Shown in pieces: positions 1-35,478 of a stretch of 35,478 bases of DNA. The notes under the pieces are model-generated. The model ran no database searches, was not told the origin of the DNA, and was given only the letters and a program-made list of their open reading frames with translations. A program made the position numbers and the translations under genes. How positions within the stretch are numbered: the first letter of the stretch is position 1; each line of letters begins with the position of its first letter. Source of the DNA: a virus (taxonomy: Duplodnaviria; Caudoviricetes); IMG/VR virus record IMGVR_UViG_3300027518_000022, positions 1 through 35,478 of that record. One strand, written 5' to 3'.

Positions 1-104
1 CGGTTTGAGGCGTGGCAAATGATCGAGTGCATGGAGCGGAATCCAACTGCCTTTGAGACAAATCACCCGGGCGAGAATCAGATTATTGATCTCTCCGCAA
101 ACAC
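1..104. repeat. 104-bp exact direct repeat, copy 1 (copy 2 at 33507-33610)
   Basis: cggtttgagg...ctctccgcaaacac is identical at both places; the copies diverge immediately afterwards (taaagc vs ccaagc). Confidence 0.95.
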
Positions 105-132
105 TAAAGCGCAGGCAACCCAGCCCGAATGA
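1..132 (+). CDS. 5'-truncated second copy of the 33384..33626 hypothetical gene, with a different C-terminus (...SANTKAQATQPE*)
   Basis: Frame 1 translates RFEAWQMIECMERNPTAF...IIDLSANT, identical to ORF 33384. TGA at 130-132 overlaps ATG at 129. Confidence 0.8.
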   Translation, partial: RFEAWQMIECMERNPTAFETNHPGENQIIDLSANTKAQATQPE

Positions 133-196
133 CTGAGATGGAAAACAGAAACGACAAAGTAGAGGGCGGGGTTGCCGCTGCCGCGATTTGTTCGCA
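96..196 (-). mobile_element. attC-like recombination site 1
   Basis: CGCAAAC, 6 nt, arm gcgcaggcaacccagccc ... arm gggcggggttgccgctgccgc with unpaired extra bases, 5 nt, GTTCGCA. Confidence 0.8.
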
Positions 197-488
197 GAAG
201 CGAGCGACCCCGGACGCCCATCGCGCCATCACTCGCGGAGCCAACGAGTGTTGGTATCGGTTCGTGATCCGACAAAAGAATGAAGTCGAAAAGATGGAAC
301 TCGAACGGGACAGGCTCAGGGATGCAATCCCCCTGCTCCAGGACCTCGCTGTTTATTTTGGGGAATCGTGCTGTCATCCCTTGGCTGTGCGGGTCCGAGA
401 ATTTCTTTCTGCGAACACCGCAACGATGGCAGGCGATGAAATCGCCTTGCCATCCGTGCATGGTTCTGCGGCCCGAATTTCAGATTGA
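129..488 (+). CDS. Cassette-borne hypothetical protein (119 aa)
   Basis: ORF starts inside site 1 and runs through site 2; short coiled-coil-like stretch (EVEKMELERDRLRDAIPLLQDL). Confidence 0.65.
   Translation: MTEMENRNDKVEGGVAAAAICSQKRATPDAHRAITRGANECWYRFVIRQKNEVEKMELERDRLRDAIPLLQDLAVYFGESCCHPLAVRVREFLSANTATMAGDEIALPSVHGSAARISD
410..469 (-). mobile_element. attC-like recombination site 2 (60 bp)
   Basis: TGCGAAC, 6 nt, acgatggcaggcgat, GAA loop, atcgccTtgccatCcgt, 5 nt, GTTCTGC. ttctgcgaac (407-416) is the reverse complement of gttcgcagaa (190-199). Confidence 0.9.
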
Positions 489-523: not shown

Positions 524-970
524 ATGACTGAAGAAGAACTGAAAAAAGAGCTAGGACTTGAGCGAGTCAGGAGAATAAAGGCTGAGAATGACGCTGTTTT
601 ACAGAGCATCCAAGTCGAGCTTTTAAAGCAGGATCTCGGGACCATTCGCCGAATCATTGGAAAGGGTGGAAGCGCCGTCGATGTTCTTGCGTTTCTCGAT
701 ACCCCTAATTCTTTCCTTCCAGGCGAAATCAACGAGGACGACGCCGACATGATCGCCAGAATCTCCGGCGCGGTAATTTCAAAAGACTGGCGAAAATTCG
801 CCGAACTCGTCGTCGAGGCTCCAGACATTGATGTAGTCGGGAAAGCAAACGTCGCGATCAAGTGGATTGCGGAGGCGGCGATTGAAAAGCTCGGAAACTC
901 CAGCCAATCCAGACACCTTGAGGGCATCGTCGATCTGGCGATCATCTCGGAAAGAAATTCCCGCCTTTAG
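524..970 (+). CDS. Cassette-borne hypothetical protein (148 aa)
   Basis: ORF track. The stop TAG overlaps GCAGAAC (970-976), the complement of GTTCTGC at 463-469. Confidence 0.75.
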   Translation: MTEEELKKELGLERVRRIKAENDAVLQSIQVELLKQDLGTIRRIIGKGGSAVDVLAFLDTPNSFLPGEINEDDADMIARISGAVISKDWRKFAELVVEAPDIDVVGKANVAIKWIAEAAIEKLGNSSQSRHLEGIVDLAIISERNSRL

Positions 971-1004
971 CAGAACACGCGTTAGCCACAAAAACTTGTT
1001 TGCG
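970..1004 (-). mobile_element. Terminal, non-attC (attI-like or primary insertion) site of the array
   Basis: GCAGAAC acgc GTTAGCC acaaaaactt GTTTGCG. There is no full attC stem; GTTTGCG is the complement of CGCAAAC at 96-102. Confidence 0.5.
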
Positions 1005-1014
1005 AATCCCAAGC

Positions 1015-1371
1015 ATGACCGACAAGACCTTCCACACCGATCTGGACGATGCGATCCTAGACGGGTGGCAAGGTCCGGTGATGCTGCCGATCAACGGCGG
1101 GGAGGTCCACGTTCACGGGCGTCGGTGTCATGTTCGGAATGCCCGACGCGTGGCCTTCCTGCGGTTTGCTATGGGCCGGGGCAGGCTGGTAGCCGAGGAA
1201 CTCATGAGCCTGCTCGACATGGCAACCGGTAGCCAGGTGCATCAGTTCCTGCGGCAGTTGCAGTTTCAGCTATCGGTCGAGAAGTCGCACATCAGGCTGC
1301 AGCTCATCATGGATGGCCGCAGAGGATACTGGGTGGCGTTTGACAAAAGGAAAGGCAATGAGCATGATTAA
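1015..1371 (+). CDS. Hypothetical protein
   Basis: ORF track 1000..1371; ATG at 1015 preferred (MTDKTF...). Confidence 0.6.
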   Translation: MTDKTFHTDLDDAILDGWQGPVMLPINGGEVHVHGRRCHVRNARRVAFLRFAMGRGRLVAEELMSLLDMATGSQVHQFLRQLQFQLSVEKSHIRLQLIMDGRRGYWVAFDKRKGNEHD

Positions 1372-4673: not shown

Positions 4674-4685
4674 CAATCCCGCCCC

Positions 4686-4931
4686 ATGCCCGCAGTAAAT
4701 TCAGAAGCGAAAGCCGATGACGCACCGGGGGAGGTTCCGCCTCTTCCCTCCCCTGGTGCGACTGCGGATCGGGTTAATCGCATCCAGCGCATCGTTGACA
4801 TTGTTGAAATGCTCAGCGGAACGCAGGACCAAGAGACGGTCATTGAGGACGAGCGGAAAAACCTCACGGCATTCGTTGCCGAAGGTCTGGACGCCGCCCT
4901 AACCGCCAAAGTCAAAGCCATCCTAAAATGA
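4686..4931 (+). CDS. Hypothetical protein (head operon)
   Basis: ORF track; ATGA overlap with the next gene. Confidence 0.6.
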   Translation: MPAVNSEAKADDAPGEVPPLPSPGATADRVNRIQRIVDIVEMLSGTQDQETVIEDERKNLTAFVAEGLDAALTAKVKAILK

Positions 4932-5227
4932 GCTATGCGACCCTCGATCATCAAGCTGCTCTTGCCGATCTGATCGCATTTGAAGGCAAGATGATTGAAA
5001 TCGACGGCGTCAAGATGAGGGCAATTATCGAACAAGGCGACACCTCCTTTGAGGCCAGTGAATTCGGAATCGACAACCGCGAAAGCACGCTCACCGCTAC
5101 GATCTTAAACAGAGGCACGACGCCGCGCAAACAAGCGCCCGTTTTTTACCAAGGGCAAAAATATCGCATCACGGCAATCAAGCCAGAGGGCGAACGAATC
5201 CTTTCCATTGATCTGACAAATGATTGA
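4928..5227 (+). CDS. Putative head-tail joining (head closure) protein
   Basis: 99 aa beta-rich protein with GQKYRITAIKPEG pattern, FII-like position. Confidence 0.6.
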   Translation: MSYATLDHQAALADLIAFEGKMIEIDGVKMRAIIEQGDTSFEASEFGIDNRESTLTATILNRGTTPRKQAPVFYQGQKYRITAIKPEGERILSIDLTND

Positions 5228-5633
5228 CACCACCCCAGACCTCGCAGAGCGAGTCGAGGATAGCATCGCGCGGGTTTTCCGTGATGCCTTCCCTGGTATT
5301 GTCATCGCCACATCCAGCAAGCCCGAGGAGCGTGTTGGAACGTCCATCGGCATCAAAGCCGAGACCGGAGCAGAGGAGCCAATCGGAACGAACATGTTCC
5401 CCATTTCCATCGACATCGAGACGCGCAACCTAGATGCACAACAGCGCGAACTGATGCGCGAAATGATCGGCAATGCCGACTCTGCCAAGCAGACGGTTTC
5501 CGCCTACTCTGCTAAATCCTTTTCCATGCCGCGAGGCCAAGCCGTCGAAATGATCGGCGCACCTCGCACGGTCGAGAACGAAAACGACCGCATCATCACC
5601 TATTCTCTTGTCGCCACAATCCAACCCATCTGA
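5220..5633 (+). CDS. Putative tail terminator/completion protein
   Basis: 137 aa, directly before the tail tube gene; positional inference. Confidence 0.5.
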   Translation: MIDTTPDLAERVEDSIARVFRDAFPGIVIATSSKPEERVGTSIGIKAETGAEEPIGTNMFPISIDIETRNLDAQQRELMREMIGNADSAKQTVSAYSAKSFSMPRGQAVEMIGAPRTVENENDRIITYSLVATIQPI

Positions 5634-5636
5634 GCC

Positions 5637-6017
5637 ATGCCAACTCCCACTTTTGTATCTGCAACCAACTTCGTAAAAGGCGTAGCTAGCGCCGAAACCG
5701 CGATCAACATTTCGGACTTCCGCCAAGGCTGGACGAATGAAAAGATTTTCATCGAAGACAAAGGCGGATCGCCCACGGGTTTCGTCTACAACTTCCTGAC
5801 TGCAACGACCTGCACCATTACCGGTGAGGTCAATACTGCCGCTCTTAACGGCGTGCTTGAAGTCGCTTTCGGAACCGCCGAAGTCATCGCAAATTCCGTG
5901 TCTGGCTACGGCATCACCACGGGCGGCTTTTACATGGATGACATCGAGATCAGTCAATCGCGAGGCGCTCTGGCCACGGCCACGGTGAACTTTACCAAGC
6001 ATCCTGATATCAACTGA
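5637..6017 (+). CDS. Putative major tail tube protein
   Basis: Thr/Gly-rich beta protein ending GFYMDDIEISQSRGALATATVNF; lies upstream of the chaperone pair. Confidence 0.65.
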   Translation: MPTPTFVSATNFVKGVASAETAINISDFRQGWTNEKIFIEDKGGSPTGFVYNFLTATTCTITGEVNTAALNGVLEVAFGTAEVIANSVSGYGITTGGFYMDDIEISQSRGALATATVNFTKHPDIN

Positions 6018-6019
6018 GG

Positions 6020-6700
6020 ATGAGCGAACTAAAAGGGGCGGGAGTTAATATCATCCCAACGCAATGTCCGCGCTTCTTCGCGGCTTGTGTCACTGCTGGC
6101 GTCGAGCTTGAACCTGGAACTCCAGGCGTCTCTAACGTCTATTCTAAGGGTGTCACCTACGATCCCGACGAGCCGGGAACGATCAGTTATCACCTCGACA
6201 ACAAGACCGTCGGCCCTTTGTCACTCGCCAAAGTTTGGCGGGATCCCTCGCAAGACATGACAGAGGCCGCAGCCCTGCCTGCACGAATGATCAGCGCAAG
6301 GACCGAAGACGATTGGCAAAGCATCGCCGACGACCTAGAGCTCCTTCACGTTTACTGTGCCATTGCCCACATCAAGTCCTTCGCGGACGGCAAATTCGCA
6401 ATCGGAATGCGTTCCGTGACCGACGAGGAGGAGCGTGCCGCTAAAATGCTCTCAGACATGCCTGATACGATCCGCAATGCCACAGGCAGACGCAACGGCG
6501 GAAGGATCGCTGAACGATTTGACGCCATCTGGATGCCTGCCATGTTTGCATGGGTGAAAGCATGGGTGGCCAATTACCTAGAGCTGAAAGACATCTGGAA
6601 AGCTGCGAATCCCGCCATCAAGATTGAGCGCGAAGGTTTTCCCCTCGTTATCCCAAAGGGGCCGCAATTTGAGAAACTAGCCCGTCGTTGGGTCAAATAA
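6020..6700 (+). CDS. Hypothetical protein (tail operon)
   Basis: 226 aa ORF packed tightly between neighbours. Confidence 0.7.
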   Translation: MSELKGAGVNIIPTQCPRFFAACVTAGVELEPGTPGVSNVYSKGVTYDPDEPGTISYHLDNKTVGPLSLAKVWRDPSQDMTEAAALPARMISARTEDDWQSIADDLELLHVYCAIAHIKSFADGKFAIGMRSVTDEEERAAKMLSDMPDTIRNATGRRNGGRIAERFDAIWMPAMFAWVKAWVANYLELKDIWKAANPAIKIEREGFPLVIPKGPQFEKLARRWVK

Positions 6701-6713
6701 CCAAAAAAGAAGC

Positions 6714-7169
6714 ATGAGCGAAATAACCATCGAAGACATCGAAAAAGAGAACAGCGTCACGCCTGACATCGTGGCCGCACGTAGCCGATCCTATCAATTC
6801 AAGGGCAAACCCCTAAAGCCCTTTTCCAAATCCCGCTCGACTGCGGCGCGTTGCATGGGAAACTCGCTTTTCCTTGGACGCGCAAAACCGGACGAAAACG
6901 GAGTCTGGGACCAAATCACGCTCGACTCGATCATGGTGGTCTGGCTCTGCTCTGTCGAGGATTCCCGCGTTGCTCGCGCCTGCCTTAATCGCGATCAGGC
7001 GATCATTGAGATGATGGCATGGTGGGACAAAGAAGGAGGAGAAATCGGAGGCGCGGAGGAGATCGAGGCCGTGCAACTGCTCAACATGATCTGCGAGGAC
7101 ATCCAGACCGTCTCTGCATCCGTCGAATCGCCATCGGGTGGCCGTGACACCTCCAACGTGGGGGAGTAA
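6714..7169 (+). CDS. Tail assembly chaperone (gpG-like)
   Basis: Acidic 151 aa protein ending at slippery GGGGGAG just before the stop. Confidence 0.65.
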   Translation: MSEITIEDIEKENSVTPDIVAARSRSYQFKGKPLKPFSKSRSTAARCMGNSLFLGRAKPDENGVWDQITLDSIMVVWLCSVEDSRVARACLNRDQAIIEMMAWWDKEGGEIGGAEEIEAVQLLNMICEDIQTVSASVESPSGGRDTSNVGE

Positions 7170-7384
7170 TCGGGAGCGATGCCGACTACGTTTCGACCGT
7201 AGCGGCAAAGCTCCCCGGCCAGACTTGGGCATATTACATGGACGAACTGCCGCTCTGCATTGGGATGCAACTACGCAACGCAGATCTTTTCGAGCGCGGC
7301 TGCGACATCGTGCCACCAGGCAGGAGCGCATCGGCAAAGATGCGGGAGATCCTTGGCGAACACGCGGATGCGTGGTTTAGTTAA
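7163..7384 (+). CDS. -1 frameshift extension of the tail chaperone (gpT-like)
   Basis: Open -1 frame GVIGSDADYVSTVAAKLPGQTWAYYMDELPLCIGMQLRNA...DAWFS* fills the gap to the ATG at 7387; absent from the ORF track. Confidence 0.7.
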   Translation, partial: GVIGSDADYVSTVAAKLPGQTWAYYMDELPLCIGMQLRNADLFERGCDIVPPGRSASAKMREILGEHADAWFS

Positions 7385-7386
7385 GC

Positions 7387-7944
7387 ATGGACAAGGTAAC
7401 CGCATCCGTTGACACCCGTGAGTTTATGGCCGCTTTGCAGGCATACGAGAAAGAATCCTCGCGTGACCTAAAAACGGTCGTCAAATCAACAGCAATCGAC
7501 GTTGCCTTTAAAGCGAATCAATCGGCAGCGGCAGCAAAGAAAGGAGCAATCCCAAGTCTAAAAACCGGACTCTACAATGCCTTGGCCGCAAAGGCCGGAT
7601 TCACTCGCGGTAAAGGAAACCAAAAGGAAGCCGAGCGCCTTTATAATCGCCGCATTTCCGCGATCAAATACAGCAAATCTCTGTTTCTCAAGATGGCGCA
7701 GGATCTCGGCGCAAAGGTCGCATCGCTCCGCAAAAAGATTGAAAATGCAGGGGCCGAAGACAAAAGCACCGTTTTGATTCCAGCGATCGAACTCTCGATT
7801 CAAGGCGTTGACATTAACCACGCCAATCAAGTCCTAAGCCAAGCATTGCAGGAGGGCGTCAACAAAAGCGCAGCCAAGATGCAGAAAAGAATCGAAGATA
7901 AAATTGCCAAACGCGCCCAAGCTCACTCAGGAACTCGACGGTAA
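7387..7944 (+). CDS. Putative neck/tail completion protein
   Basis: Basic 185 aa helical protein (VDTREFMAALQAY...) in the virion operon. Confidence 0.5.
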   Translation: MDKVTASVDTREFMAALQAYEKESSRDLKTVVKSTAIDVAFKANQSAAAAKKGAIPSLKTGLYNALAAKAGFTRGKGNQKEAERLYNRRISAIKYSKSLFLKMAQDLGAKVASLRKKIENAGAEDKSTVLIPAIELSIQGVDINHANQVLSQALQEGVNKSAAKMQKRIEDKIAKRAQAHSGTRR

Positions 7945-8357
7945 TGCAACGCTTCTCAATCAAGCAGCTCTCTTCGATGTTTCGCACGAATCGCGAGACA
8001 GTCGAGAAACGCGCCTCGCACCTAGGGCTGAAATACGAGGATGGAGACAATGGAGCAAAGCTCTACGACATCTTTGAAATCGCACAGCTTCGCCCTCCAC
8101 CAGCCCGTAGTGAAGGGGCAATGTCCTTGGAGGAGGCGAGGACGCGAGAGGCTACAGCACGCGCAGAGGGGCTGGAAATGGACAACGCGCGGAAGAGACG
8201 GGAACTTGCCAACGTGGACGAGCTGATGGCGGCTCAGAATGTCCTTTTCGACGAGATTGCGGCCATCGTGAAGAAGTCGAAGATGACAGAGCCGGAAAAG
8301 GAGGATTGTCTGAGCGTCATTTCCTCAGTGCCTCGGAAATGCTGGGGCGAGTTTTAA
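7944..8357 (+). CDS. Terminase small subunit (Nu1-like)
   Basis: N-terminal winged HTH (SIKQLSSMFRTNRETV...KLYD) followed by the coiled coil LEEARTREATARAEGLEMDNARKRREL, typical of lambda gpNu1. Confidence 0.75.
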   Translation: MQRFSIKQLSSMFRTNRETVEKRASHLGLKYEDGDNGAKLYDIFEIAQLRPPPARSEGAMSLEEARTREATARAEGLEMDNARKRRELANVDELMAAQNVLFDEIAAIVKKSKMTEPEKEDCLSVISSVPRKCWGEF

Positions 8358-8383
8358 GGGAGAAAAAAAGTTACATTTGACCG

Positions 8384-8411
8384 TTGACTTGGTGAAACTT
8401 TAAGTTACACT
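8384..8411 (+). promoter_or_regulatory. Sigma70-type promoter with overlapping palindromic operator
   Basis: TTGACT-16 nt-TACACT; inverted repeat GTGAAACTT-t-AAGTTACAC (8392-8410); ATG 6 nt after the -10. Confidence 0.65.
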
Positions 8412-8417
8412 AAGCCC

Positions 8418-8585
8418 ATGACCAACACCAATCAACGCAAGCAAGCCCTCCGCCACGACATCATGAACGTCATCAAGGCCAATGGCCTCGAGGTCACTGG
8501 AGACTTCTGGTTCATGCTGATCTTCCGCACTGAATCCGAACTCAAGAAAATCGCTCGGGAACTCCACATCAAAGCCGCCTGCTAA
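8418..8585 (+). CDS. Small hypothetical protein (55 aa)
   Basis: Own translation MTNTNQRKQALRHDIMNVIKANGLEVTGDFWFMLIFRTESELKKIARELHIKAAC*; below the ORF track cut-off. Confidence 0.7.
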   Translation: MTNTNQRKQALRHDIMNVIKANGLEVTGDFWFMLIFRTESELKKIARELHIKAAC

Positions 8586-8591
8586 AGCAGT

Positions 8592-8792
8592 ATGACCCCC
8601 ACCGAATACAAAACACTCCGCGAAAAGCTCGCCCTTACACAGGGCGGGCTTGCCTCGCGTTTAGGTGTGACGCGCAAGACCATCAACGCACGCGAAACTG
8701 GAGCCGTCCGCATCAGCGAAGAAGCGGCGCTAGCCCTTGAGGCGCTGGCCTTTATGGAGCTGAAACCGGCATCGCAACCTGCTTGCCAATAG
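8592..8792 (+). CDS. XRE-family helix-turn-helix regulator
   Basis: MTPTEYKTLREKLALTQGGLASRLGVTRKTINARETG is a typical Cro/C1 HTH. Confidence 0.85.
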   Translation: MTPTEYKTLREKLALTQGGLASRLGVTRKTINARETGAVRISEEAALALEALAFMELKPASQPACQ

Positions 8793-10197
8793 TCGTCGGA
8801 AGCCCTGCCGCCTCCAGCTTGGCATTGTCGGCCTCGTTCTCGGCGATGATCTTGTCGATGCTCAAGCCCCGATCCTTGGCCGCACGTTCGCGAGAGTTAA
8901 GGGACAGAGCGATTTCCCGCTCGATGGCCTCGATGTCGCCAACAGGATCAACCCAAGTCCAAGTCCTGCCGGAAAACTCAACGTGAGAGAGGCGGTCAAA
9001 GTCGAGGAGCGTATACCCCTCGATTTTCCCCATCATCAGCGCCATGCGGAGCCAACGCTCGAAAAGCGGAATCTCGAAAGTGTCGATGAACCACGAATGG
9101 AGAATCTTGTAGATGTCACGCTCTGACAGGACGCCCTGCCGGATGGAGGAATACGACACCCCTTCCAAATCTTGTGCCCATGTGTTGTAATTAACGTAGA
9201 TGCCTGGGCTGACTCCGCGCAGAATGGCCTTGCGGAAATCAGGCATCGCACTATTCGGATGCGCTGGGTCAATCATCTGGGCCTCGACGCCATGCGGGAG
9301 CGTCTCAAACGTGCCTGGTGCAGAGGGCGCAATGGCCTTGCCGTCGTCGTCCTCGTCGCCAGTATATTGCGCCTCGCCAGTTTGCTTGAAAAAGCCAAGC
9401 TTGTTGGCGCTGATTCGCGCGGCGATAACCTCGGCCTCTTCAAACTTCGCAAGATGCCGAAGTCGAAGGAGGGCGTTGGCGAGCCAAGAATAGCCCTGAC
9501 TCTGGTTGATGCGTCGAGCCAAGAACGTATGGATCATGTTCTCTCCCGGCACTTGAAACGTCTCGCGCGTGTACCTGCCGCTTTTCGGGTCCATTTTCCG
9601 CAGGTGGTATTTCACCGGCTCGTCCCATTCGTCAAACTCGACGCCCATGTAAATACGGGCGGCATCATTCCGGTGGTGCGGATCCAACGCGTCGATCTCG
9701 ATCCCCTGCGCGGCAAAGCGAAACTCGTTTTTAGGAAAGCCATCGACGGTCCTCGTCAAAAAACCGCCATCGCGAACCGCAGACCGGAGCGCGAGACGCT
9801 CGAAAGCCGCCCTCGAAAACTGCCGCGTTACATCGAAATTCCCACGCCTAGAAAAGTCCTCCCACGCCATCTCAACCTTGGACCGCGCATCATTGTCGGC
9901 GCTATTGGAAAGCCCCTTTTTACTCCGCGCATCTGCTCGACGAGCGAGCGATTTCATTCGGATGCCATGCTGGCCGATCACGTTGGACTCCAAGGCCATC
10001 AAGGCGCCCTCGATATAGCCATCGTTGCGCTCAGAATCACGCGCACGGTCTCGCAAGGACTTCGCGTCCTGCTTGATCGCATTGTCCGCTGGGCCTGTCC
10101 CGGCAACCCAGTCGTTGGTGTATCGAGTGCCTTTGGCCGCGTCAAAATTACGCGTGCGGATGGGCTTGTTATTGGGACCGTAGAGTAATGGTTTCAT
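8752..10197 (-). CDS. Portal protein, lambda family
   Basis: LRDRARDSERND, NVIGQHGI, GVEFDEWDEPVKYH, QSQGYSWLA, DLEGVSYSSIRQG, WTWVDP motifs. Confidence 0.92.
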   Translation of the reverse strand: MKPLLYGPNNKPIRTRNFDAAKGTRYTNDWVAGTGPADNAIKQDAKSLRDRARDSERNDGYIEGALMALESNVIGQHGIRMKSLARRADARSKKGLSNSADNDARSKVEMAWEDFSRRGNFDVTRQFSRAAFERLALRSAVRDGGFLTRTVDGFPKNEFRFAAQGIEIDALDPHHRNDAARIYMGVEFDEWDEPVKYHLRKMDPKSGRYTRETFQVPGENMIHTFLARRINQSQGYSWLANALLRLRHLAKFEEAEVIAARISANKLGFFKQTGEAQYTGDEDDDGKAIAPSAPGTFETLPHGVEAQMIDPAHPNSAMPDFRKAILRGVSPGIYVNYNTWAQDLEGVSYSSIRQGVLSERDIYKILHSWFIDTFEIPLFERWLRMALMMGKIEGYTLLDFDRLSHVEFSGRTWTWVDPVGDIEAIEREIALSLNSRERAAKDRGLSIDKIIAENEADNAKLEAAGLPTTIGKQVAMPVSAP

Positions 10198-12667: not shown

Positions 12668-13639
12668 CTAAACAGGTTGCCCGTGGCTCAACAATACCGG
12701 AGCCAACGTCACCATTTGCGAAAATTGCGTCTCTGTCCCACGCGAGAAGGTCAAGACAGCCGAAACTGGAAGCGCCACGCTGGCCGCATCCAGCAACCGC
12801 AGAACCTTGGAAGTGTCGAGAGTCATAGTGACGCCGATTGGGCCAATAAACGTTTCCGAAACGGTAATGGCTGGATTCACTCCGACCGCAGTGCGCTTCA
12901 GTTCAATCTTAATCGTCTCTCCGGTGGCATCTCGCGCTACAAGAAACTCTCCCGGCTCGATGTCCTCCAGTGCCGTTTCGAGCTGATAGGTGGACACGTT
13001 GGCCGAAAGCCACATCGTGCCGGTATCGGTCGCGGTTCTAATTTGAAACTTGCCAGCATCCGGCAACCTTGAGATCGTGATGCGGTCATTCTGCGCCACG
13101 CTCACGCTCCCGGTCGCCACGTTTGCCACAGTGACAGCCGCCTCGCTAATGTTGGACGCGCTAGTCACCGCGACCAGAGTTTGCAGCGTCAGGTCAATCT
13201 CGACCGTCTCGACGTTGGAAGCACCTCCTGCGATCAGCGTGAGGGCGCGATTGGTCATCGTTCCAAAGGCCGAATGGGCAATCGTGAAGTCTGCTCTCGC
13301 TCCATTGCTGCGGAAAGTGACGGTAAAAAGGCCATCTTTTCCCGTCACATCCACACCGCCAGCGGAAACGATGGCAGAAAGTCGATTTAAGGCGAGGCCC
13401 AGCAAATGAGCGTCAATCCCGACTGCGGGAAGCTCGACTGTGGATCCGCCCCATGTGATCGACCAATCGCCAGACGCAATCGGCACGGGCTTGTCGAGCG
13501 CAAGGGACAGGCTCAGTGTGTCACTGCTACTAATCTCCAAATGATCCGCGATCAGCTCGACGCTCAGGCTGTCGCCGGGGCGAATCGCATCAGGCAATCC
13601 CCGCACCTGTCCTTTGTCGTCGTAGCGCAATTTCAACAT
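12668..13639 (-). CDS. Putative virion structural protein
   Basis: Beta-rich with a repeated unit (GDWSITWGG / GKFQIRT). Start moved to MLKLRY (13639) because the promoter motif sits 35 nt upstream. Confidence 0.6.
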   Translation of the reverse strand: MLKLRYDDKGQVRGLPDAIRPGDSLSVELIADHLEISSSDTLSLSLALDKPVPIASGDWSITWGGSTVELPAVGIDAHLLGLALNRLSAIVSAGGVDVTGKDGLFTVTFRSNGARADFTIAHSAFGTMTNRALTLIAGGASNVETVEIDLTLQTLVAVTSASNISEAAVTVANVATGSVSVAQNDRITISRLPDAGKFQIRTATDTGTMWLSANVSTYQLETALEDIEPGEFLVARDATGETIKIELKRTAVGVNPAITVSETFIGPIGVTMTLDTSKVLRLLDAASVALPVSAVLTFSRGTETQFSQMVTLAPVLLSHGQPV

Positions 13640-13709
13640 GCCGGACGCCTCCACAAAACAAGCGGCAAAATCAAGTTGAAAATCCCTGTCGTTTTGTTGA
13701 CTCATCGTC
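13640..13709. promoter_or_regulatory. Back-to-back divergent late promoter pair
   Basis: CAA-G-TTG at 13672-13678; minus motif TGTTTTGTGG at 13660 (ATG 13639); plus motif CGTTTTGTTG at 13690 (ATG 13710). Confidence 0.75.
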
Positions 13710-21730: not shown

Positions 21731-21802
21731 GCTCAAACCCCTCTACAAAACGACGCTAAAATTCAACTTGCGTTTTTCATTCGTTTTGTGGACTCCTCCG
21801 GC
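21731..21802. promoter_or_regulatory. Back-to-back divergent late promoter pair
   Basis: CAA-C-TTG at 21764-21770; minus motif CGTTTTGTAG at 21752 (ATG 21730); plus motif CGTTTTGTGG at 21782 (ATG 21803). Confidence 0.75.
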
Positions 21803-21979
21803 ATGGATACGAAACTTCTCCTTGGCCTTCTCCTCCGTCACGGTCTGACCATCGCAGGTGGTTACGCGACCGGGGCTGGTATCGTCTCACAGGCCGATCT
21901 CCAGACCGGTATCGGTGCAGCGGTCGCGCTTATAGGCGTCGTGATGTCGGCTCTCGAAAAACGCAAGCGGATCAAATGA
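21803..21979 (+). CDS. Putative holin
   Basis: 58 aa, two hydrophobic segments, LLRHGLTIAGG motif, basic C-terminus, coupled to the endolysin gene. Confidence 0.75.
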   Translation: MDTKLLLGLLLRHGLTIAGGYATGAGIVSQADLQTGIGAAVALIGVVMSALEKRKRIK

Positions 21980-29068: not shown

Positions 29069-29610
29069 ATCAAAAATACAAAATTGTTGACGGGCGTTGC
29101 GTTGCGATACGCGATTTTGGCGATGTAAAAACTGGCGATGTTGGTGGTCGCCTAGAGACAGAAAGGAATTTGTCTCATCACGGAGACTGCTGGGTCTATG
29201 GCGATGCGCGGGTCTCTGGCAATGCGCGGGTCTATGGCAATGCGTGGGTCTTTGGCGATGCGTGGGTCTTTGGCGATGCGCGGGTCTCTGGCAATGCGCG
29301 TGTCTTTGGCGATGCGCGGGTCTTTGGCGATGCGCGTGTCTTTGGCGATGCGCGTGTCTTTGGCGATGCGCGGGTCTCTGGCGATGCGTGGGTCTCTGGC
29401 GATGCGTGGGTCTCTGGCGATGCGTGGGTCTCTGGCAATGCGCGGGTCTCTGGCAATGCGCGGGTCTCTGGCGATGCGTGGGTCTATGGCGATGCGTGGG
29501 TCTCTGGCGATGCGTGGGTCTTTGGCAATGCGCGGGTCTTTGGCGATGCGTGGGTCTCTGGCAATGCGCGGGTCTTTGGCGATGCGCGGGTCTATGGCGA
29601 TAAAAACTGA
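29065..29610 (+). CDS. Hexapeptide-repeat (left-handed beta-helix) protein
   Basis: DVKTGDVGGRLETERNLSHHGDCWV followed by about 22 G(D/N)A(R/W)V(S/F/Y) repeats. Confidence 0.88.
   Translation: MNQKYKIVDGRCVAIRDFGDVKTGDVGGRLETERNLSHHGDCWVYGDARVSGNARVYGNAWVFGDAWVFGDARVSGNARVFGDARVFGDARVFGDARVFGDARVSGDAWVSGDAWVSGDAWVSGNARVSGNARVSGDAWVYGDAWVSGDAWVFGNARVFGDAWVSGNARVFGDARVYGDKN
29191..29601 (+). repeat. 18-bp coding tandem repeat
   Basis: Unit GGC RAT GCG YGG GTC THT repeated without spacers. Confidence 0.95.
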
Positions 29611-29626
29611 AAGAAATCGACATATC

Positions 29627-29806
29627 ATGAAAGACTACGCAATCGCATTACTCTGCCTCGTCACCGGACTTGGCTACGGACTCGCCTTCTACTTTGCCCT
29701 CGAAATGGGCGAGCAGAGGGATGAGAAAGATCGAGCCATCGCAGAATTGACTGAGGTCAGGGTTATGGCGGAATGGAGCAAGTTTGAAGAGGGGAGGGCG
29801 AAATGA
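29627..29806 (+). CDS. Small membrane-anchored hypothetical protein
   Basis: MKDYAIALLCLVTGLGYGLAFYFAL. Confidence 0.6.
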   Translation: MKDYAIALLCLVTGLGYGLAFYFALEMGEQRDEKDRAIAELTEVRVMAEWSKFEEGRAK

Positions 29807-30018
29807 GCGTTTCCGACTTCCTCGAAATGCCGGATGAAGTCCCGCAATGGAAACGAGACGCCGCGCAAATGGGCATCACGACGTTCTATGTTTTCGACAT
29901 GGCAGACTCATATTGGGAAGCCAGCATTGACTGGTTTGGTGATGTTGAGACCCAGTGCGGTGAGACTGAGCGTGAGGCCGTGAATTCGCTGATGTTTAAA
30001 CTGAAACTGGACGCATGA
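29803..30018 (+). CDS. Hypothetical protein
   Basis: ORF track; ATGA overlap. Confidence 0.6.
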   Translation: MSVSDFLEMPDEVPQWKRDAAQMGITTFYVFDMADSYWEASIDWFGDVETQCGETEREAVNSLMFKLKLDA

Positions 30019-30105
30019 CGGAACTTTCACTTTTCATCCTCTTCGCGATCCTGACTGCGGTTGCAATGATCGACGGAGTTCTTAAACAATAACCCGATAC
30101 AATAG

Positions 30106-30477
30106 ATGACAACAAAAGAAGCGATACAAAAACTAGAACCATACAACGCATGGATGAACGGCCATGGCCAATCCACAATGCCGGGACCGAAGGAAATTGT
30201 CGCGGCGATTCAATTCGCAGCTGAAGCTCTAAGGCAAATGCAAAAGCTTGAAGCGGTTTATAATGGAATTGATCCCGAAGGCTGGATTACCCATGAGCCA
30301 GGTGATCGCTTGCCGGTCGAGGAAAACGAACGGGTTGAAGTGCAATTGCGAAATGGGGAAACGTTCTCAGCCTTCCCTGCTTATTTTTGGGGATTGCCTG
30401 GCGGATTCTTTTCGATGTGGGAAGTGCTGCCGGAAAATCACGATGCTGAAATCGTAGCATGGAGGAGGCCGCGATGA
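30106..30477 (+). CDS. Hypothetical phage protein
   Basis: GWITHEPGDRLPV...VEVQLRNG...EIVAWR pattern seen in small phage early proteins. Confidence 0.65.
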   Translation: MTTKEAIQKLEPYNAWMNGHGQSTMPGPKEIVAAIQFAAEALRQMQKLEAVYNGIDPEGWITHEPGDRLPVEENERVEVQLRNGETFSAFPAYFWGLPGGFFSMWEVLPENHDAEIVAWRRPR

Positions 30478-30797
30478 GCAATTCTTTTATCAAAGACTTG
30501 TCGCTTTCCATCTCTCGGATTGAAGCGGCTTACGGCAATGCTGACGCATGGCCCAGAGTTTGCAAGACCCACCTGGAGCTTTTGACAGAGCTTGCACAAA
30601 GCCCTCGACCACTGCATCTCGGGGAGATTCAAGCGACCAGCAATATGGTCCCTTCCTGCGCTCAAGTCACGCTCAGTGCGCTTGCTGGATTGCTGGCAAT
30701 ACATTCGGCCCCGGTTACCATTCGGCGCGAGCGTGTAGCAATGCCAAAAACAGGCCGATGGGCCTATTTTTACCGCCTCGCTAAAGTAGAGGATTGA
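30474..30797 (+). CDS. Hypothetical protein, possible winged helix
   Basis: ORF track; ends ...GRWAYFYRLA. Confidence 0.5.
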   Translation: MSNSFIKDLSLSISRIEAAYGNADAWPRVCKTHLELLTELAQSPRPLHLGEIQATSNMVPSCAQVTLSALAGLLAIHSAPVTIRRERVAMPKTGRWAYFYRLAKVED

Positions 30798-30811
30798 TTA
30801 AAAGATTGGCG

Positions 30812-30868
30812 TTGCCATCCACTCTCGTTTTGTTGAACCTTTACGTAACGCTTCACCGTTACAGTAAC
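30812..30868 (+). promoter_or_regulatory. Seventh copy of the promoter motif plus iteron-like operators upstream of the initiator
   Basis: TTG at 30812, CGTTTTGTTG at 30826; GTAACGC at 30845, GTTAC at 30858, GTAAC at 30864. Confidence 0.55.
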
Positions 30869-30871
30869 ATC

Positions 30872-31753
30872 ATGCCAAACTACACAAAGCTTTTCAATTC
30901 CATCGTGACTTCCACAATCTGGACCGAAGATGACAAGACGCGGATCGTCTGGATCACGATGCTGGCGATTGCGGACCAAAATGGCGAGGTGCAGGCATCC
31001 ATACCTGGGCTGGCCAGATTGGCGGCGGTTAGCATCAGTGACGCCGAAATGGCCATCGCCAAGTTCCTTGGGCCTGACCCTTACTCGCGAACTCCTGATA
31101 ATGACGGGCGGCGAATTGCCAAGATTGACGGGGGCTGGGAGCTTTTGAACCACGCCAAATACCGCAGGATGGCAAGTTTGGCCGAGGCCAAGGAGGCCAA
31201 TGCTGAGCGGCAACGACGCCACCGCGAGCGTAACGCCCCCGTAACGCATAGTAACGCCTCCGTAACGCACCGTAACGCTACCGTAACGCCTCAGACCGAC
31301 AAAGCAGAAGCAGAAGCAGAAGCAGATACAAAAGAAAATAAGAGCGGCAAAGCCGCATCGGCGAACAAGTCGCCTCTTTCTTTCCCAGATTCATTTTCTG
31401 AGAATCGGAAACAGACTTTCCTCCTCTGGGCAAAGCACAAGGCAGAAAAGGGTCAAAGCTACAAGCCCACCGGATGGGAGCAGCTATTGAGCAGTCTCGA
31501 CAACATGACCGATGCCGAGCTTGACCAAGCAGTGAGGCATTCGATGGCTATGAACTATCAAGGCATCTTCCCGGCTCCAAAGGGCGAGCAGAACCAGCAA
31601 GGCCAAGAAACAAAGCCCAAGCTCGCCACCGCCCCGGCCAACTGGCAGCAAACAGCCGAGGAGCTTTACGAGCAGAGCTTTGCCGGAATGGCGTGGGAAG
31701 CGATCACCCCAACGCAACGCGGACAGATCGCGATGCACATCAACCAGGCATGA
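30872..31753 (+). CDS. Replication initiator protein
   Basis: YTKLFNSIVTSTIW N-domain, NAERQRRHRER, internal iterons, AEAEAEAD linker, AMNYQGIF C-domain; lies directly before DnaB. Confidence 0.8.
   Translation: MPNYTKLFNSIVTSTIWTEDDKTRIVWITMLAIADQNGEVQASIPGLARLAAVSISDAEMAIAKFLGPDPYSRTPDNDGRRIAKIDGGWELLNHAKYRRMASLAEAKEANAERQRRHRERNAPVTHSNASVTHRNATVTPQTDKAEAEAEADTKENKSGKAASANKSPLSFPDSFSENRKQTFLLWAKHKAEKGQSYKPTGWEQLLSSLDNMTDAELDQAVRHSMAMNYQGIFPAPKGEQNQQGQETKPKLATAPANWQQTAEELYEQSFAGMAWEAITPTQRGQIAMHINQA
31230..31289 (+). repeat. Iterons of the putative replication origin
   Basis: GTAACGC at 31230, 31241, 31251, 31262, 31272, 31283. Confidence 0.8.
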
Positions 31754-33057
31754 GCGCGAACTACCCATCCGATCCAGACGCAGAGAGGGCAGTCCTGTCC
31801 TGCGCCCTGCAATGGCAAGACTGCTACGACAAGGTCGCCGCGCATCCATCGGGAGCCGATCTTTTCTACCTGCCCCATCACCGCCTCATCTGGAGCGCCA
31901 TGCTATCGGCCAAGCTCAGCGCCGGGGGATTGGATCTCGTCACGCTCACATCGTCTCTCAGGGCGAGCGACGACCTCGACGCCGTGGGCGGGGCCGTAAT
32001 GCTCTCAGAATTGCTCTCAGACGTCCCCAGCCCCAAAATGCTGGCCGGATACCTCAAGACCGCCGAGAACGCCTCAAAACGCCGCAGAATCGCAAGGGAG
32101 TGCCATTCGCTAGCCGCAGATGCCTGCGACATGGGGAAGGACGTTGATGGTCTGGTCCAGAGGGCAGACTCAATCATCCAAGGACTCCTTCGGTCATCCA
32201 GCCAATCGAGGGCAAGGCGATGGAACGACGTTTTGGGTAAAACGCTTCAGCAGATCGACGATGCCAGAAGTGCCGGTGGAAGGATCCCCGGCCTGTCCAC
32301 GGGCTACGGATGCCTCGACTCTGCAACAAATGGCTATCAACCCGGCCAATTGTGGGTTGTCGCTGCTCGCCCTGGTGCTGGCAAGACCGCCCTCCTGATG
32401 TGCATGGTGCGCCACCTCGTCGAGGCCGATCACGCCACAGCCATCTTTTCCGCTGAGATGTTCGCCGAGGAGCTGGCGATTCGGGCAATCTCAGGCCAAA
32501 GCAAAATCGACTCTCTGAAACTCGCGAGCGGTAAACTCGACCGCATGGACTTTGGAAAGATCACATCGGCACTAGAGCAATCGACATCGTGGCCGCTATG
32601 GGTAGACGACCGTGCAGACATGCGCTTGGTTGACATCCAAGTTGGGGCGCGTAGACTCGTCAAAGAGGAGGCGGTCAAAGTGATATTTGTCGATTACCTG
32701 CAATTGATCAAAGAGCCAGACGGGAGCCGCAATCGAGAAGATGCCGTTCGCCGATTGTCTGATGGGTTTAAGCAACTGGCTAAAGAGCTTGGCATCACAA
32801 TTGTGGCATTGGCACAGCTCAACCGATCCAGTGAAAGGCGAGAAGGCAGGAAGCCCGTCGTTTCCGATTTGCGAGACTCTGGGGCAATCGAGCAGGATGC
32901 GAACGTGATCCTCCTACTCAACCCGCAGGAATCTGAGGCCGACGAGGATGCTGTCGATGTCGAGCTGATCGTGGCCAAGTGTCGCGGTGGCAGACTTGGA
33001 GCTTTGGAATTTGGATTCAACAAACCGACAACGACTTTTTACCCCAAACAAAAATGA
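31750..33057 (+). CDS. dnaB: Replicative DNA helicase
   Basis: DAERAVL, AARPGAGKT, FSAEM, VDYLQL, LAQLNR, DLRDSGAIEQDA. Confidence 0.95.
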   Translation: MSANYPSDPDAERAVLSCALQWQDCYDKVAAHPSGADLFYLPHHRLIWSAMLSAKLSAGGLDLVTLTSSLRASDDLDAVGGAVMLSELLSDVPSPKMLAGYLKTAENASKRRRIARECHSLAADACDMGKDVDGLVQRADSIIQGLLRSSSQSRARRWNDVLGKTLQQIDDARSAGGRIPGLSTGYGCLDSATNGYQPGQLWVVAARPGAGKTALLMCMVRHLVEADHATAIFSAEMFAEELAIRAISGQSKIDSLKLASGKLDRMDFGKITSALEQSTSWPLWVDDRADMRLVDIQVGARRLVKEEAVKVIFVDYLQLIKEPDGSRNREDAVRRLSDGFKQLAKELGITIVALAQLNRSSERREGRKPVVSDLRDSGAIEQDANVILLLNPQESEADEDAVDVELIVAKCRGGRLGALEFGFNKPTTTFYPKQK

Positions 33058-33347
33058 GAACAGCAAACATCAACGTAACCAAGATCGACAAGACCGCCCT
33101 TTACGAAGGCAAAAACGGCAAATACCTGAGCCTGGTCTTCTTTGATAACAAAGACGGGCCAGACCAATTCGAGAACGATGGCTTCGTGACTCAAGACTTG
33201 GGCAAGGAGCGCCGCATGGCAGGAGAGAAAGGGCCGATCATCGGCAACTGGAAGGAAGTTGGAACTAAGGGGCCGACTCCTGCGCCAACCAGACAGGAAA
33301 GCTCCGTGATTGTTTCCATTGAGGATGACTCTTCAATCCCTTTTTGA
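33054..33347 (+). CDS. Putative single-stranded DNA-binding protein
   Basis: INVTKIDK...GKYL core and acidic C-terminal tail EDDSSIPF. Confidence 0.65.
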   Translation: MRTANINVTKIDKTALYEGKNGKYLSLVFFDNKDGPDQFENDGFVTQDLGKERRMAGEKGPIIGNWKEVGTKGPTPAPTRQESSVIVSIEDDSSIPF

Positions 33348-33383
33348 TTAACGGTATTTGCGAACTAAACACCAGAGAATACT

Positions 33384-33626
33384 ATGAACAATAACCCACA
33401 AAAAGGAACCGCTACACGCAAGGCTGGCGGATGGCATCCGACGCTGGAATATACCAACGGAGGACGGTTGATCGGCGCTATAAGTTTTTGGACTGAGGAC
33501 CAAGCTCGGTTTGAGGCGTGGCAAATGATCGAGTGCATGGAGCGGAATCCAACTGCCTTTGAGACAAATCACCCGGGCGAGAATCAGATTATTGATCTCT
33601 CCGCAAACACCCAAGCTGACCTATGA
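33384..33626 (+). CDS. Hypothetical protein whose 3' end is the cassette insertion point
   Basis: Ends ...SANTQADL* here and ...SANTKAQATQPE* in the copy at 1-132. Confidence 0.7.
   Translation: MNNNPQKGTATRKAGGWHPTLEYTNGGRLIGAISFWTEDQARFEAWQMIECMERNPTAFETNHPGENQIIDLSANTQADL
33507..33610. repeat. 104-bp exact direct repeat, copy 2
   Basis: Identical to 1-104. Confidence 0.95.
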
Positions 33627-33700
33627 CCACCGCGCCAACAGACTCCGAATCCACTGAAACCGCCGACGCGGTGGGCATTAGGTCCAGCGCCTTGTTCGGG
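33602..33700 (-). mobile_element. attC-like recombination site (99 bp)
   Basis: CGCAAAC, 6 nt, gctgacctatgaccaccgcg ... cgcggtgggcatTaggtCcagc, 5 nt, GTTCGGG. The complementary GCCCGAAC is at 34694-34701. Confidence 0.88.
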
Positions 33701-34549
33701 CTTTTTGATCCACCACCGGCGACCAAATACAACTTCCTGTCTCTCGGGGCAGGGGTGCAATCCTCAACACTGGCACTCATGGCCGCGCATGGCGAAATCG
33801 GCCCGATGCCGGATGCCGCAATCTTCGCGGACACGCAGGCAGAACCGGAGAGCGTCTATCGCTGGCTCGACTGGCTGGAAAAGCAACTGCCCTTCCCGGT
33901 GCATCGCGTGAGCAAAGGCAATCTCACTGAGGTTGCGCTGACGATCCGCCAGAGGAAAGACGGAACGGGGCAATGGGCAAAAAGCCTGATTCCGGCATAC
34001 ACGTTGGAACCGGACGGCACAGCAGGGCACATGGGGCGAGCTTGCACATACGACTACAAGCTCTTACCGCTTCTGTCGGCCCAGCGAAAACTTGCCGGAA
34101 TCAAGCGGGCACAAAAAGAATGCACGGTCACAAGCTGGATTGGAATAAGCTACGACGAAATCCAGCGAATGAAGAACAGCCGGGAACCGTGGGTGCAACA
34201 CCGCTTCCCGCTTATCGAGCGCAAGATGCGGCGGCAGCAATGTTTGGAATGGATGGAAGTGAAAGGCTACCCGAAGCCACCAAGGTCCGCTTGCGTGTAT
34301 TGTCCTTATCACGGAAATCGTGAATGGCGACGGCTACGGGACGAGGAACCGCAGGAGTTCGCACGCGCCATCAAGTTTGAGAAAGACTTACAGGCCGCAA
34401 AATCGCAAACCGACAACATGCGCGGCGTTCCCTACCTCCACCCGTCCCGTGTGCCACTGGAGCAAGTGGACCTGCGCGACCCCGACGAAAACCAGATGCA
34501 ACTATGGAACACAATGCAAAACGAGTGCGAAGGAATGTGCGGCGTATGA
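33623..34549 (+). CDS. Cassette-borne PAPS-reductase-like (adenine nucleotide alpha-hydrolase) protein
   Basis: LSLGAGVQSS loop, AIFADTQAEP, RACTYDYK, WIGISYDE, FPLIE, PPRSACVYCPY, C-terminal CEGMC. Confidence 0.8.
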   Translation: MTTAPTDSESTETADAVGIRSSALFGLFDPPPATKYNFLSLGAGVQSSTLALMAAHGEIGPMPDAAIFADTQAEPESVYRWLDWLEKQLPFPVHRVSKGNLTEVALTIRQRKDGTGQWAKSLIPAYTLEPDGTAGHMGRACTYDYKLLPLLSAQRKLAGIKRAQKECTVTSWIGISYDEIQRMKNSREPWVQHRFPLIERKMRRQQCLEWMEVKGYPKPPRSACVYCPYHGNREWRRLRDEEPQEFARAIKFEKDLQAAKSQTDNMRGVPYLHPSRVPLEQVDLRDPDENQMQLWNTMQNECEGMCGV

Positions 34550-34755
34550 TCCCACAAGAAAAACTCCCGCGTGAAGCCCGAGAAGCTATCAACGAGGAAA
34601 TCGACTGCTGGGAGACGCCAGACAGTCCCGAAGCCTTTTGTTTTGCGATGAAACACTTGATGATTCTCCGTGACAAAATCGACGCGATTCTTTGCCCGAA
34701 CACCCGTGAATTTGTCCCATCAGCACCCACTCCACCCGCTTTTCAAAAGGCTTAA
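34546..34755 (+). CDS. Cassette-borne small hypothetical protein
   Basis: ATGA overlap with the previous gene; reads through CCCGAAC as P-N. Confidence 0.55.
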   Translation: MIPQEKLPREAREAINEEIDCWETPDSPEAFCFAMKHLMILRDKIDAILCPNTREFVPSAPTPPAFQKA

Positions 34756-34759
34756 TTAT

Positions 34760-35080
34760 ATGAAACATAAAAACGCATTTATTTTTTCAATGGGGGATTT
34801 GAAAAAGTTCCATCAAGCGAAGCGCGGGCGGCTGGTCGAAATGCACGGGGCGGATCGCGTCAGGCGTGCGGAGGAGCTAGCAAAGGTTACTGCTGCTTCG
34901 GTTGAAGAATGGCTGCAATACTCTCCTGAATATTTCGATTTGAGTTATGAGCAAGCCGGATTTCAAAGGTTCGCAATCGCTTCGGAATTGAAACGGGCCA
35001 AATGGGATGCCGGATATTGGGCCGGTTTGGCGATCTTGCTTTTTTTGGGCTGGCTACTCGACAGGATTTTGAATTTTTGA
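34760..35080 (+). CDS. Hypothetical protein with C-terminal hydrophobic segment
   Basis: MKHKNAF start; TGA abuts GCCGAAC at 35081. Confidence 0.6.
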   Translation: MKHKNAFIFSMGDLKKFHQAKRGRLVEMHGADRVRRAEELAKVTAASVEEWLQYSPEYFDLSYEQAGFQRFAIASELKRAKWDAGYWAGLAILLFLGWLLDRILNF

Positions 35081-35229
35081 GCCGAACGGCGGCGGTGAGG
35101 TGGCCCCCTGAAAGGGGGCTTGCTCTCCACTGTGTGTTGCCCGGTCGCGACCGAACTAGATTTGAAATGAATACCTCACCGAAAACCGAACCAGAGAGTG
35201 GAGAGCCCACCTCACCGCCGCCGTTGCCC
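35081..35229 (-). mobile_element. Atypical/composite attC-like site
   Basis: GCCGAAC at 35081; GTTGCCC at 35136 and 35223; perfect 19-bp inverted repeat 35085-35103 / 35207-35225. Confidence 0.6.
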
Positions 35230-35406
35230 GGACGGAGGTGCCCCTCGTGCAAAGGCACGGGATGGGTAATGCGACACTCATCACATGCGACCCACCCTAT
35301 CGGGTGTCACGCGTGTGGGGGCACCGGAGAGCGGAGAGAGCGAAGCGACCGGAGCGATCCGGGCAACACCACTACGCAGGGAGGGCGAAGCCCTTCCCTG
35401 CCGTGA
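35167..35406 (+). CDS. Cassette-borne small zinc-ribbon protein (two CxxCxGxG motifs)
   Basis: CPSCKGTG and CHACGGTG; starts inside the hairpin and ends inside the next site. Confidence 0.65.
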   Translation: MNTSPKTEPESGEPTSPPPLPGRRCPSCKGTGWVMRHSSHATHPIGCHACGGTGERRERSDRSDPGNTTTQGGRSPSLP

Positions 35407-35415
35407 ATGTTCTGC
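35361..35415 (-). mobile_element. attC-like recombination site (55 bp)
   Basis: GGGCAAC, 6 nt, acgcagggagggc, GAA loop, gcccTtccctgcCgt, 4 nt, GTTCTGC. tccgggcaac is the complement of gttgcccgga (35223-35232). Confidence 0.85.
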
Positions 35416-35427
35416 GTTTCGATTAAG

Positions 35428-35478
35428 ATGAAAAGATACGATCCAATCCAATACCTCTCGCAAGGCGGCTCTGCTTAT
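35428..35478 (+). CDS. 3'-truncated ORF of a further cassette
   Basis: MKRYDPIQYLSQGGSAY... open to the window end. Confidence 0.35.
   Translation, partial: MKRYDPIQYLSQGGSAY

Follow-up and report, generated by a model that had tools for sequence, protein, structure and literature searches.

attC hairpins, inverted genes, and a shared reading frame in a cassette array of a tailed phage

The array and its hairpins

The stretch of DNA that we analyzed (the window; 35,478 nucleotides) is the whole IMG/VR record IMGVR_UViG_3300027518_000022, from a tailed phage. Its 50 ORFs include matches to capsid, portal, terminase, tape measure, RecT-like, exonuclease, and DnaB proteins, and no tyrosine recombinase is encoded among them. 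Bases 1-110 repeat 33507-33616. We rejected this end repeat as a real duplication: in Logan contigs its depth is that of a single copy (37.8-39.3 versus 30-37 in the flanks), and the related locus L120 runs straight through it, continuing from the equivalent of 29404-33616 directly into that of 1-1886. We infer that the genome is circular, that its array is polymorphic, and that the record traces one of the paths through it; the gene at 33054 (97 aa) bounds this array on one side and that at 1015 (118 aa) on the other. The 34.5-kb sequence of a relative (G002) has direct terminal repeats. The array sits in the phage's replication operon.

Other repeats lie elsewhere in the window. An 18-nt tandem repeat array at 29101-29673 is within a coding region and is flanked by a 32-nt repeat (29038, 29600), and related promoter-like repeats of 34-64 nt (2193-2226, 13637-13700, and 21742-21805) precede oppositely oriented blocks of late genes. 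L120 also has a ~1-kb insertion with an HNH-like ORF (5990-7000), after its homologue of window position 1886; contigs from another sample (X2, see below) have a loose end there too. A search of Rfam gave no match.

All genes and sites of the array are on the + strand. At its left end, an 80-aa gene (33384..33626) crosses AAC 33606 in frame 0 (the AAC is read as asparagine) and receives its tail and its stop from whichever cassette comes next; its 3' 110 nt recur at 1-110 on another allele path. The attC site that it enters (33606..33696; detector score 13) has ATGA at 33623-33626 in its stem, and a PAPS-reductase-like cassette gene (phrog_424; 33623..34549) is predicted to start there. A 69-aa gene (34546..34755) overlaps this gene at another ATGA, which has no site, and reads C-P-N-T across AAC 34699. 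Next is a 106-aa gene (34760..35080), which ends at TGA 35078-35080, just before AAC 35085. An assembly branch at ~34756 in one sample (X1, see below), away from any AAC, implies that the gene at 34760 has a different upstream neighbour in part of the population. AAC 35085 opens an atypical site (35085..35225), an attC-like part at 35085-35138 followed by a partial copy of it in inverted orientation, up to GTT 35223-35225, which serves as a junction though it scores below the detector's threshold. The inverted copy (within 35085-35231) encodes the N-terminus of the following gene, a 79-aa DnaJ-type zinc-finger cassette gene (35167..35406); together, the site and the copy make a 140-nt hairpin whose loop contains the ATG, and long sites with internal starts may have arisen in this way. 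This gene crosses AAC 35365 in frame 0, into an attC site (35365..35411) whose bottom strand is on +. Its frame-0 stop (TGA 35404-35406) is followed immediately by ATG 35407, whose frame stays open to the contig end.

At the other end of the record, an attC-like site with extra bulges (100..192; predicted fold -18.8; below the detector's threshold) carries ATGA 129-132 in its loop and represents the allele that is also present in L120. The 119-aa cassette gene that begins there (129..488), which matches none of the families searched, reads through AAC 414 in frame 0 and has a tail of 24 residues. The site at 414 (414..465; detector score 14) has textbook geometry and does not hold the start codon of the next gene, which encodes 148 aa (524..970) and stops at TAG 968-970, 4 nt before AAC 974. 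The fixed right end of the array (974..990) is attI-like: AAC-N5-TTAG with a frame-0 TAG at 983-985 and no hairpin. The 118-aa gene that follows (1015..1371) occupies the position where relatives carry intI; a weak lead hints at a winged-helix regulator.

These sites are integron attC hairpins, with the recombinogenic (bottom) strand on the coding strand, which is the reverse of bacterial cassettes. At 414, 33606, and 35365, inverted AAC and GTT cores close an imperfect hairpin with an unpaired central spacer, and on the coding strand all three read AAC-N6-3 bp-6 bp-stem, with a T and a C as extra bases on the 3' arm and with GTT preceded by N4-5 (at 33606, AAC-N6-3 bp-[C]-6 bp-[T]-stem-N5-GTT, the bottom-strand geometry). 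The sites at 100 and 35085 fold and miss the strict attC model; 34699 and 974 fail it. The two extrahelical bases on the R''-L'' arm are positioned as in attC, the second being a T 6-8 nt beyond the first. The first of them is mostly C (105/119), versus the usual G, and bacterial sites of the same family likewise have C here (289 of 310). In 458 kb of shuffled DNA (both strands), our detector found no site with a score of at least 11; sites scoring below 11, sites less than 150 nt from a locus end, and near-duplicates were excluded from our counts. A 16-base core pattern run over viral contigs gave 119 loci, almost all of them due to chance, and we used none of them. A similar site was not found in 50,697 GenBank phage records, and the same hairpin family is common in bacterial chromosomal integrons.

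Integron cassettes are regarded as promoterless genes that lie upstream of their own attC and are read from Pc. In the window, all of the array genes lie on the bottom strand of attC, so the canonical order (a top-strand gene upstream of attC) does not hold; instead, each cassette begins with its own hairpin and ends at the next AAC. As a control for polarity, we used bacterial loci with the same site family (131 loci of an estimated ~1000 stretches). The longest ORF between consecutive sites was on the top strand in 145 cases, the bottom strand in 15, and ambiguous in 31, versus 6, 28, and 26 for viral loci. One conceivable reason for the inversion lies in replication, with the coding strand serving as the lagging-strand template. 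Neither the inverted genes nor the relatives with their own integrases (see below) were part of the original prediction.

One reading frame across the sites

It had been predicted that every ORF that crosses a crossover triplet reads it in the same frame. The frames themselves are as described: S-A-N-T at 100, 33606, and 414, C-P-N-T at 34699, and P-G-N-T at 35365; and two genes do stop at the core (TAG 968-970 before AAC 974 and TGA 35078-35080 before AAC 35085). Not all of these are separate crossovers. The S-A-N-T at 100 and at 33606 belongs to the same upstream gene, given the repeat of 33507-33616 at 1-110, and counts once. At 974, a gene does stop just before the core, but this is the attI-like fixed end rather than a hairpin. 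We rejected AAC 34699 as a recombination site: it has no hairpin (-0.9 kcal/mol), no attC geometry, and no assembly joint. The three independent crossings that are left in the window are not significant (0.47^3 to 0.55^3, or 0.10-0.17); the significance of the frame comes from related loci.

We collected such loci by three routes (protein-seeded, pattern-seeded, and integrase-seeded); part of the viral set was obtained by the site pattern, and the sites share ancestry. The gene caller of our early frame count favoured overlaps by a bonus, and we therefore repeated the count without gene calls and without the bonus. With no gene calls, upstream genes cross the AAC in frames 0/1/2 in 71/2/1 of 118 distinct contexts from 53 viral loci; in the rest, the upstream sequence stops earlier or is non-coding (31) or is top-strand (13). 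Control AACs in genes of the same loci are in frame 0 in 47% of cases, or 55% if matched to the core (p = 7e-20 and 2e-15). The independent integrase-seeded set gave 30/0/0 across 49 new contexts, with 15 that stop earlier or are non-coding and 4 top-strand. The bonus-free gene caller gave 126/2/1 for 213 sites in 95 loci (a redundant set), with a median tail of 9 residues beyond the AAC. In this set, the upstream gene stops before the core at 35 sites and at the core (TAA|C) at 23, or 58 of 213 together; 20 had no gene and 6 were top-strand. If each upstream protein family is counted once, the tally is 90/1/1 among 127. The predicted frame bias is overwhelming in viral homologues.

The sites also supply stops in this frame. 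A stop is found within the site in frames 0/1/2 in 85/46/42 of 92 viral sites, versus 55/51/50 of 101 bacterial sites of the same family, which show no preference. ATGA with its TGA in frames 0/1/2 is found 47/19/3 times in viral sites versus 10/4/7 times in bacterial sites, and the 47 viral frame-0 cases are at 15 different offsets (8 of them at one offset). The coding frame that leaves the site has an ATG within it in 80 of 155 viral cassettes versus 5 of 276 bacterial ones; the other 75 viral cassettes do not have an in-site ATG start. Only 6 of the 80 in-site ATGs are themselves in frame 0. The first frame-0 stop falls at -11 to +12 nt of the ATG for 70 of the 80 (21 and 7 for frames 1 and 2), and in 5,000 permutations the mean was 35.6 and the maximum 52. 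Stop and start form ATGA in 35 of the 80 (permutation mean 3.5, maximum 13).

These starts are predicted, and homology forces an in-site start for 13 of 27 testable genes, several of whose homologues may themselves carry hairpins. The gene at 33623 is an example. Its homology starts near residue 28-37, the first start codon past the site is codon 44, and the stretch from the site to the conserved domain offers no ATG, GTG, or TTG, which requires a start within the site. The two ATGAs at 129-132 and 33623-33626 are where the original prediction placed them. The start of the gene at 35167, which was also said to lie in a hairpin, is inside the long composite (35085-35225) only, and the frame-0 stop (35109-35111) is 55 nt upstream of it.

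We think it fairly probable that this is an integron-type array of the phage in which the shared frame borrows a stop from the next site and passes ribosomes to the start in that site; translational coupling is suggested by the spacing of stops and starts. It is likely that the shared frame, together with the in-site stops and starts, keeps the operon translatable in any order of cassettes. Alternatively, the frame might just supply a stop and avoid fusions after shuffling, and the closeness of stops and starts might be ordinary compaction with no special coupling. This would fit with the sites at 414 and 35085 of the window, which are uncoupled, with the many genes that stop before the core, and with some of the in-site starts, whose A-rich loops could recruit ribosomes unaided. 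Also, ATGA overlaps of -4 are not commoner at sites (27/99) than at ordinary phage gene junctions (883/2,757; p = 0.38); the predicted enrichment of ATGA stands relative to bacterial attC sites and to permutations, but not relative to the phage background. On the other hand, compaction does not account well for a stop near 70 of 80 starts when permutations never exceeded 52, and ATG 33623, which is paired in the predicted mRNA fold (P = 0.83-0.99), would need to be opened. On balance, we consider this alternative unlikely.

Cassette exchange and the integrase end

Logan contigs from three samples of one study (X1, X2, and X3; X1 is possibly the source sample) show rearranged versions of the array within a population. 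All three contain a joint of 35084 to 35365, which skips exactly 280 nt with 3 shared letters, and X1 also joins 33605 to 35365 (6 shared letters). In addition, the end of the cassette at 100-413 is joined to the site at 35365, further ends are joined to 100 and 414, and there are loose ends at 33610, 100, and 412/425. Related loci (L120, L146, L131, L134, and L156) switch cassettes at the same AACs. The same 80-aa gene leads, at the same AAC, into three different cassettes (two in the window and one in L146); a different cassette ends at AAC 414 in L146; different cassettes end at AAC 974 in L131, L134, and L156; and the breakpoint at 974 is common to L131, L132, L134, L135, and L156. These joints and allele breakpoints are placed at the AAC to within 3-6 shared letters, and the alleles may go back to old events in strains that coexist. 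Depending on the allele, the 80-aa protein ends in NTQADL, NTKAQATQPE, NTTTQVGR, or NTTTQGGRSPSLP, so the swapping of short C-terminal tails that had been proposed from a single sequence is seen directly in assemblies from three samples.

The variable regions of L134 and L146 include cassettes with promoter-like stretches (TTG...TATAAT-type) and small helix-turn-helix-like genes, suggesting regulatory cassettes. A scan of 31500-35478 found matches to the promoter consensus at the chance level.

Neither this genome nor five related records (G001-G005) encodes intI, so the integron is not complete. In three other phage loci (L183, L253, and L272), an integron integrase gene immediately follows the array and shares the strand of its cassette genes; L272 scores above the cut-off of TIGR02249, and L183 and L253 score below it. 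The integrase of L272 has at least 120 metagenome relatives at 65-97% identity and is 36-39% identical to three bacterial IntIs. Across 27 integrase-seeded phage loci, 76 of 79 sites are on the strand of intI. We checked the surroundings of four of these loci and found phage replication, Mu-type, or terminase genes. The bottom strand carries intI in the phage loci and in the regular bacterial integron L426 alike, which means that these are not inverted-integrase integrons.

In 21 of 22 loci, intI is preceded, at a distance of 31-56 nt, by a non-hairpin motif, AAC-N4-6-TT. At these 21 attI-like sites, upstream genes cross in frame 0 (11) or stop before the motif (10), with no other outcome, and the frame-0 stop overlaps the start of intI in three loci. 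The motif at 974 has the same form, lies 41 nt before the 118-aa gene, and has its TAG in frame 0; it is a fixed breakpoint without a hairpin, like the motif before the phage intI genes, and a putative attI. The spacing between motif and gene matches that of attI1. Because the array genes point towards attI, Pc cannot drive them. In four loci (L272, at 5910-5965, and L497, L501, and L502), the frame 0 that runs through the attI-like site terminates at an ATGA shared with the start of intI; in L272, this ATGA is made by a short ORF that starts just before the AAC, which is reminiscent of ORF-11 (see below) except that it feeds the integrase.

Might the phage's own RecE/RecT-like system have exchanged the cassettes by homologous recombination between similar hairpins, with no role for an integron integrase? 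The window does encode a RecT-like protein and an exonuclease and no tyrosine recombinase, and L166 has a hybrid-looking site. But the joints share just 3 letters (35084 to 35365) or 6 letters (33605 to 35365), the breakpoints fall on the triplet that IntI cleaves, and relatives have IntI beside such arrays. We find this quite improbable.

Interpretation and relation to known integrons

Returning to the coupled, integron-type array, we propose that an IntI acting in trans, from a host integron or a co-infecting integron phage, would cut the folded coding strand at AA|C. A cassette would then consist of C, the hairpin, the gene, and AA, usually without a stop of its own; and since the cassette would end before the stop of its gene, all cassettes would have to use one frame. 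Genes caught in frames 1 or 2 would be counter-selected because they would run on or be fused with the next gene, while the common terminator frame would make cassettes interchangeable and prevent fusions. Ribosomes that enter in frame 0 may open the hairpin in the mRNA, terminate there, and start again at the ATG that overlaps the stop or lies near it. It is very improbable that the frame is instead a functionless relic of a few ancestral sites that were copied along with their neighbours: the sites do form sequence families, with 8 of 47 frame-0 ATGAs at one offset, and the set is partly pattern-seeded, but 90 upstream protein families use frame 0 versus 2 others, ATGA keeps its phase at 15 offsets, the integrase-seeded set shows the same bias, and bacterial sites of the same family are unbiased, so this explanation is largely refuted.

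On the origin of the parts, the original prediction suggested that the cassettes evolved for phage operons rather than being captured from hosts. This agrees with the layout, which is phage-specific, and with the stop/start pairs, which bacterial hairpins of the same family do not have, but the hairpin family is bacterial. The hairpins look host-derived and the cargo looks phage-derived, as if hairpins from bacterial integrons had been combined with phage genes to assemble cassettes. Ordinary phage genes occur both with and without sites. For example, we detected a site in 3 of 78 viral PAPS-reductase-like homologues (the detector has known misses), and in a quick tree of 79 such proteins, the 4 site-bearing rows were on 4 separate branches, which suggests repeated recruitment of these genes into cassettes, with the caveat that degenerate sites in L166 and L185 escaped the detector.

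A bolder reading, whose chances of being right we put at about even, is that these arrays form a class of phage integrons of their own, which would have a separate IntI subfamily, attI in the early operon, a frame code used throughout the population, and coupled starts; phages without an integrase, like this one, would go on shuffling with IntI supplied in trans. In this class, cassettes would be made by cutting at an AAC near the 3' end of a phage gene, which would give combinatorial C-terminal tails. If this is true, then the recombination sites are plug-and-play translation couplers.

In any case, the polarity of cassettes is reversed here, the site carries a shared translation grammar, and phages reshuffle the array within one population. 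The array is a natural example of recombination sites that double as coding sequence and suggests a design rule for shufflable operons. The occurrence of phage genes with and without sites also gives a way into the open question of cassette formation. And because sites encode the N-termini and C-terminal tails of many small phage proteins, these ends should not be taken for domains.

We did not find a description of bottom-strand cassette genes with a shared frame in the openly accessible literature. What is new here is the frame statistics with controls and the joints at the level of a population. The sites resemble integron attC (Bouvier et al. 2009, PMC2727003) in their AAC/GTT cores, their unpaired central spacer, and the extrahelical bases on one arm, and the accessible text of that paper places the crossover at AA|C of the bottom strand. 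Also, the relatives keep the regular order of intI, attI, and array. Unlike integron cassettes, the genes here are on the bottom strand and the hairpin precedes the gene, holds the gene's start and N-terminus, and supplies the stop of the preceding gene.

By the definition of CALINs in the part of 10.1101/030866 that is accessible (at least two attC on one strand within 4 kb and no intI), the window contains one. Qi et al. 2023 (PMC9892861) described CALINs and integrons in phage genomes. As far as the accessible text goes, those CALINs are similar to this one in having attC arrays without an integrase and methyltransferases as cargo (here in L131, L156, and L253), and it does not mention inverted genes, a shared frame, or in-site starts. 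By our computation, however, their phage CALIN TJE1 has the ordinary polarity, with the bottom strand on - and the genes on +; our detector did not score the sites of their ctTUS972, so this contrast in polarity rests on TJE1. Incidentally, Virus Rctr41k (KX853513.1; our L542) carries a phage integron of the inverted-integrase type at 4680-10100, with at least six attC sites of ordinary polarity; its integrase is annotated only as xerD-like, and the phage is absent from the accessible lists of Qi et al. Inverted-integrase integrons (Cury et al., 10.1101/030866; PMC13323075) are similar to ours in that intI and the cassette genes are co-oriented. In the accessible accounts of them, though, intI is flipped relative to attC and the genes are top-strand, whereas in the phage loci it is the cassette genes that are flipped, beside a regular intI.

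Two known cases involve a frame that crosses a site. In the gcuF1-blaOXA-28 fusion, as described in the accessible part of Hocquet et al. 2012 (PMC3375312), the frame across attC decides whether the next cassette is expressed, as we propose here, but that is a single in-frame fusion rather than a general frame that supplies stops. ORF-11 of attI1, according to the available text of PMC8876359, reads across the crossover point, ends at an in-phase stop that the inserted cassette provides, and couples translation to that cassette. But ORF-11 and the short attC ORFs involve one leader peptide at the first position, whereas in the phage arrays it is the full-length genes of all of the cassettes that cross, on the opposite strand and in one frame at every junction.
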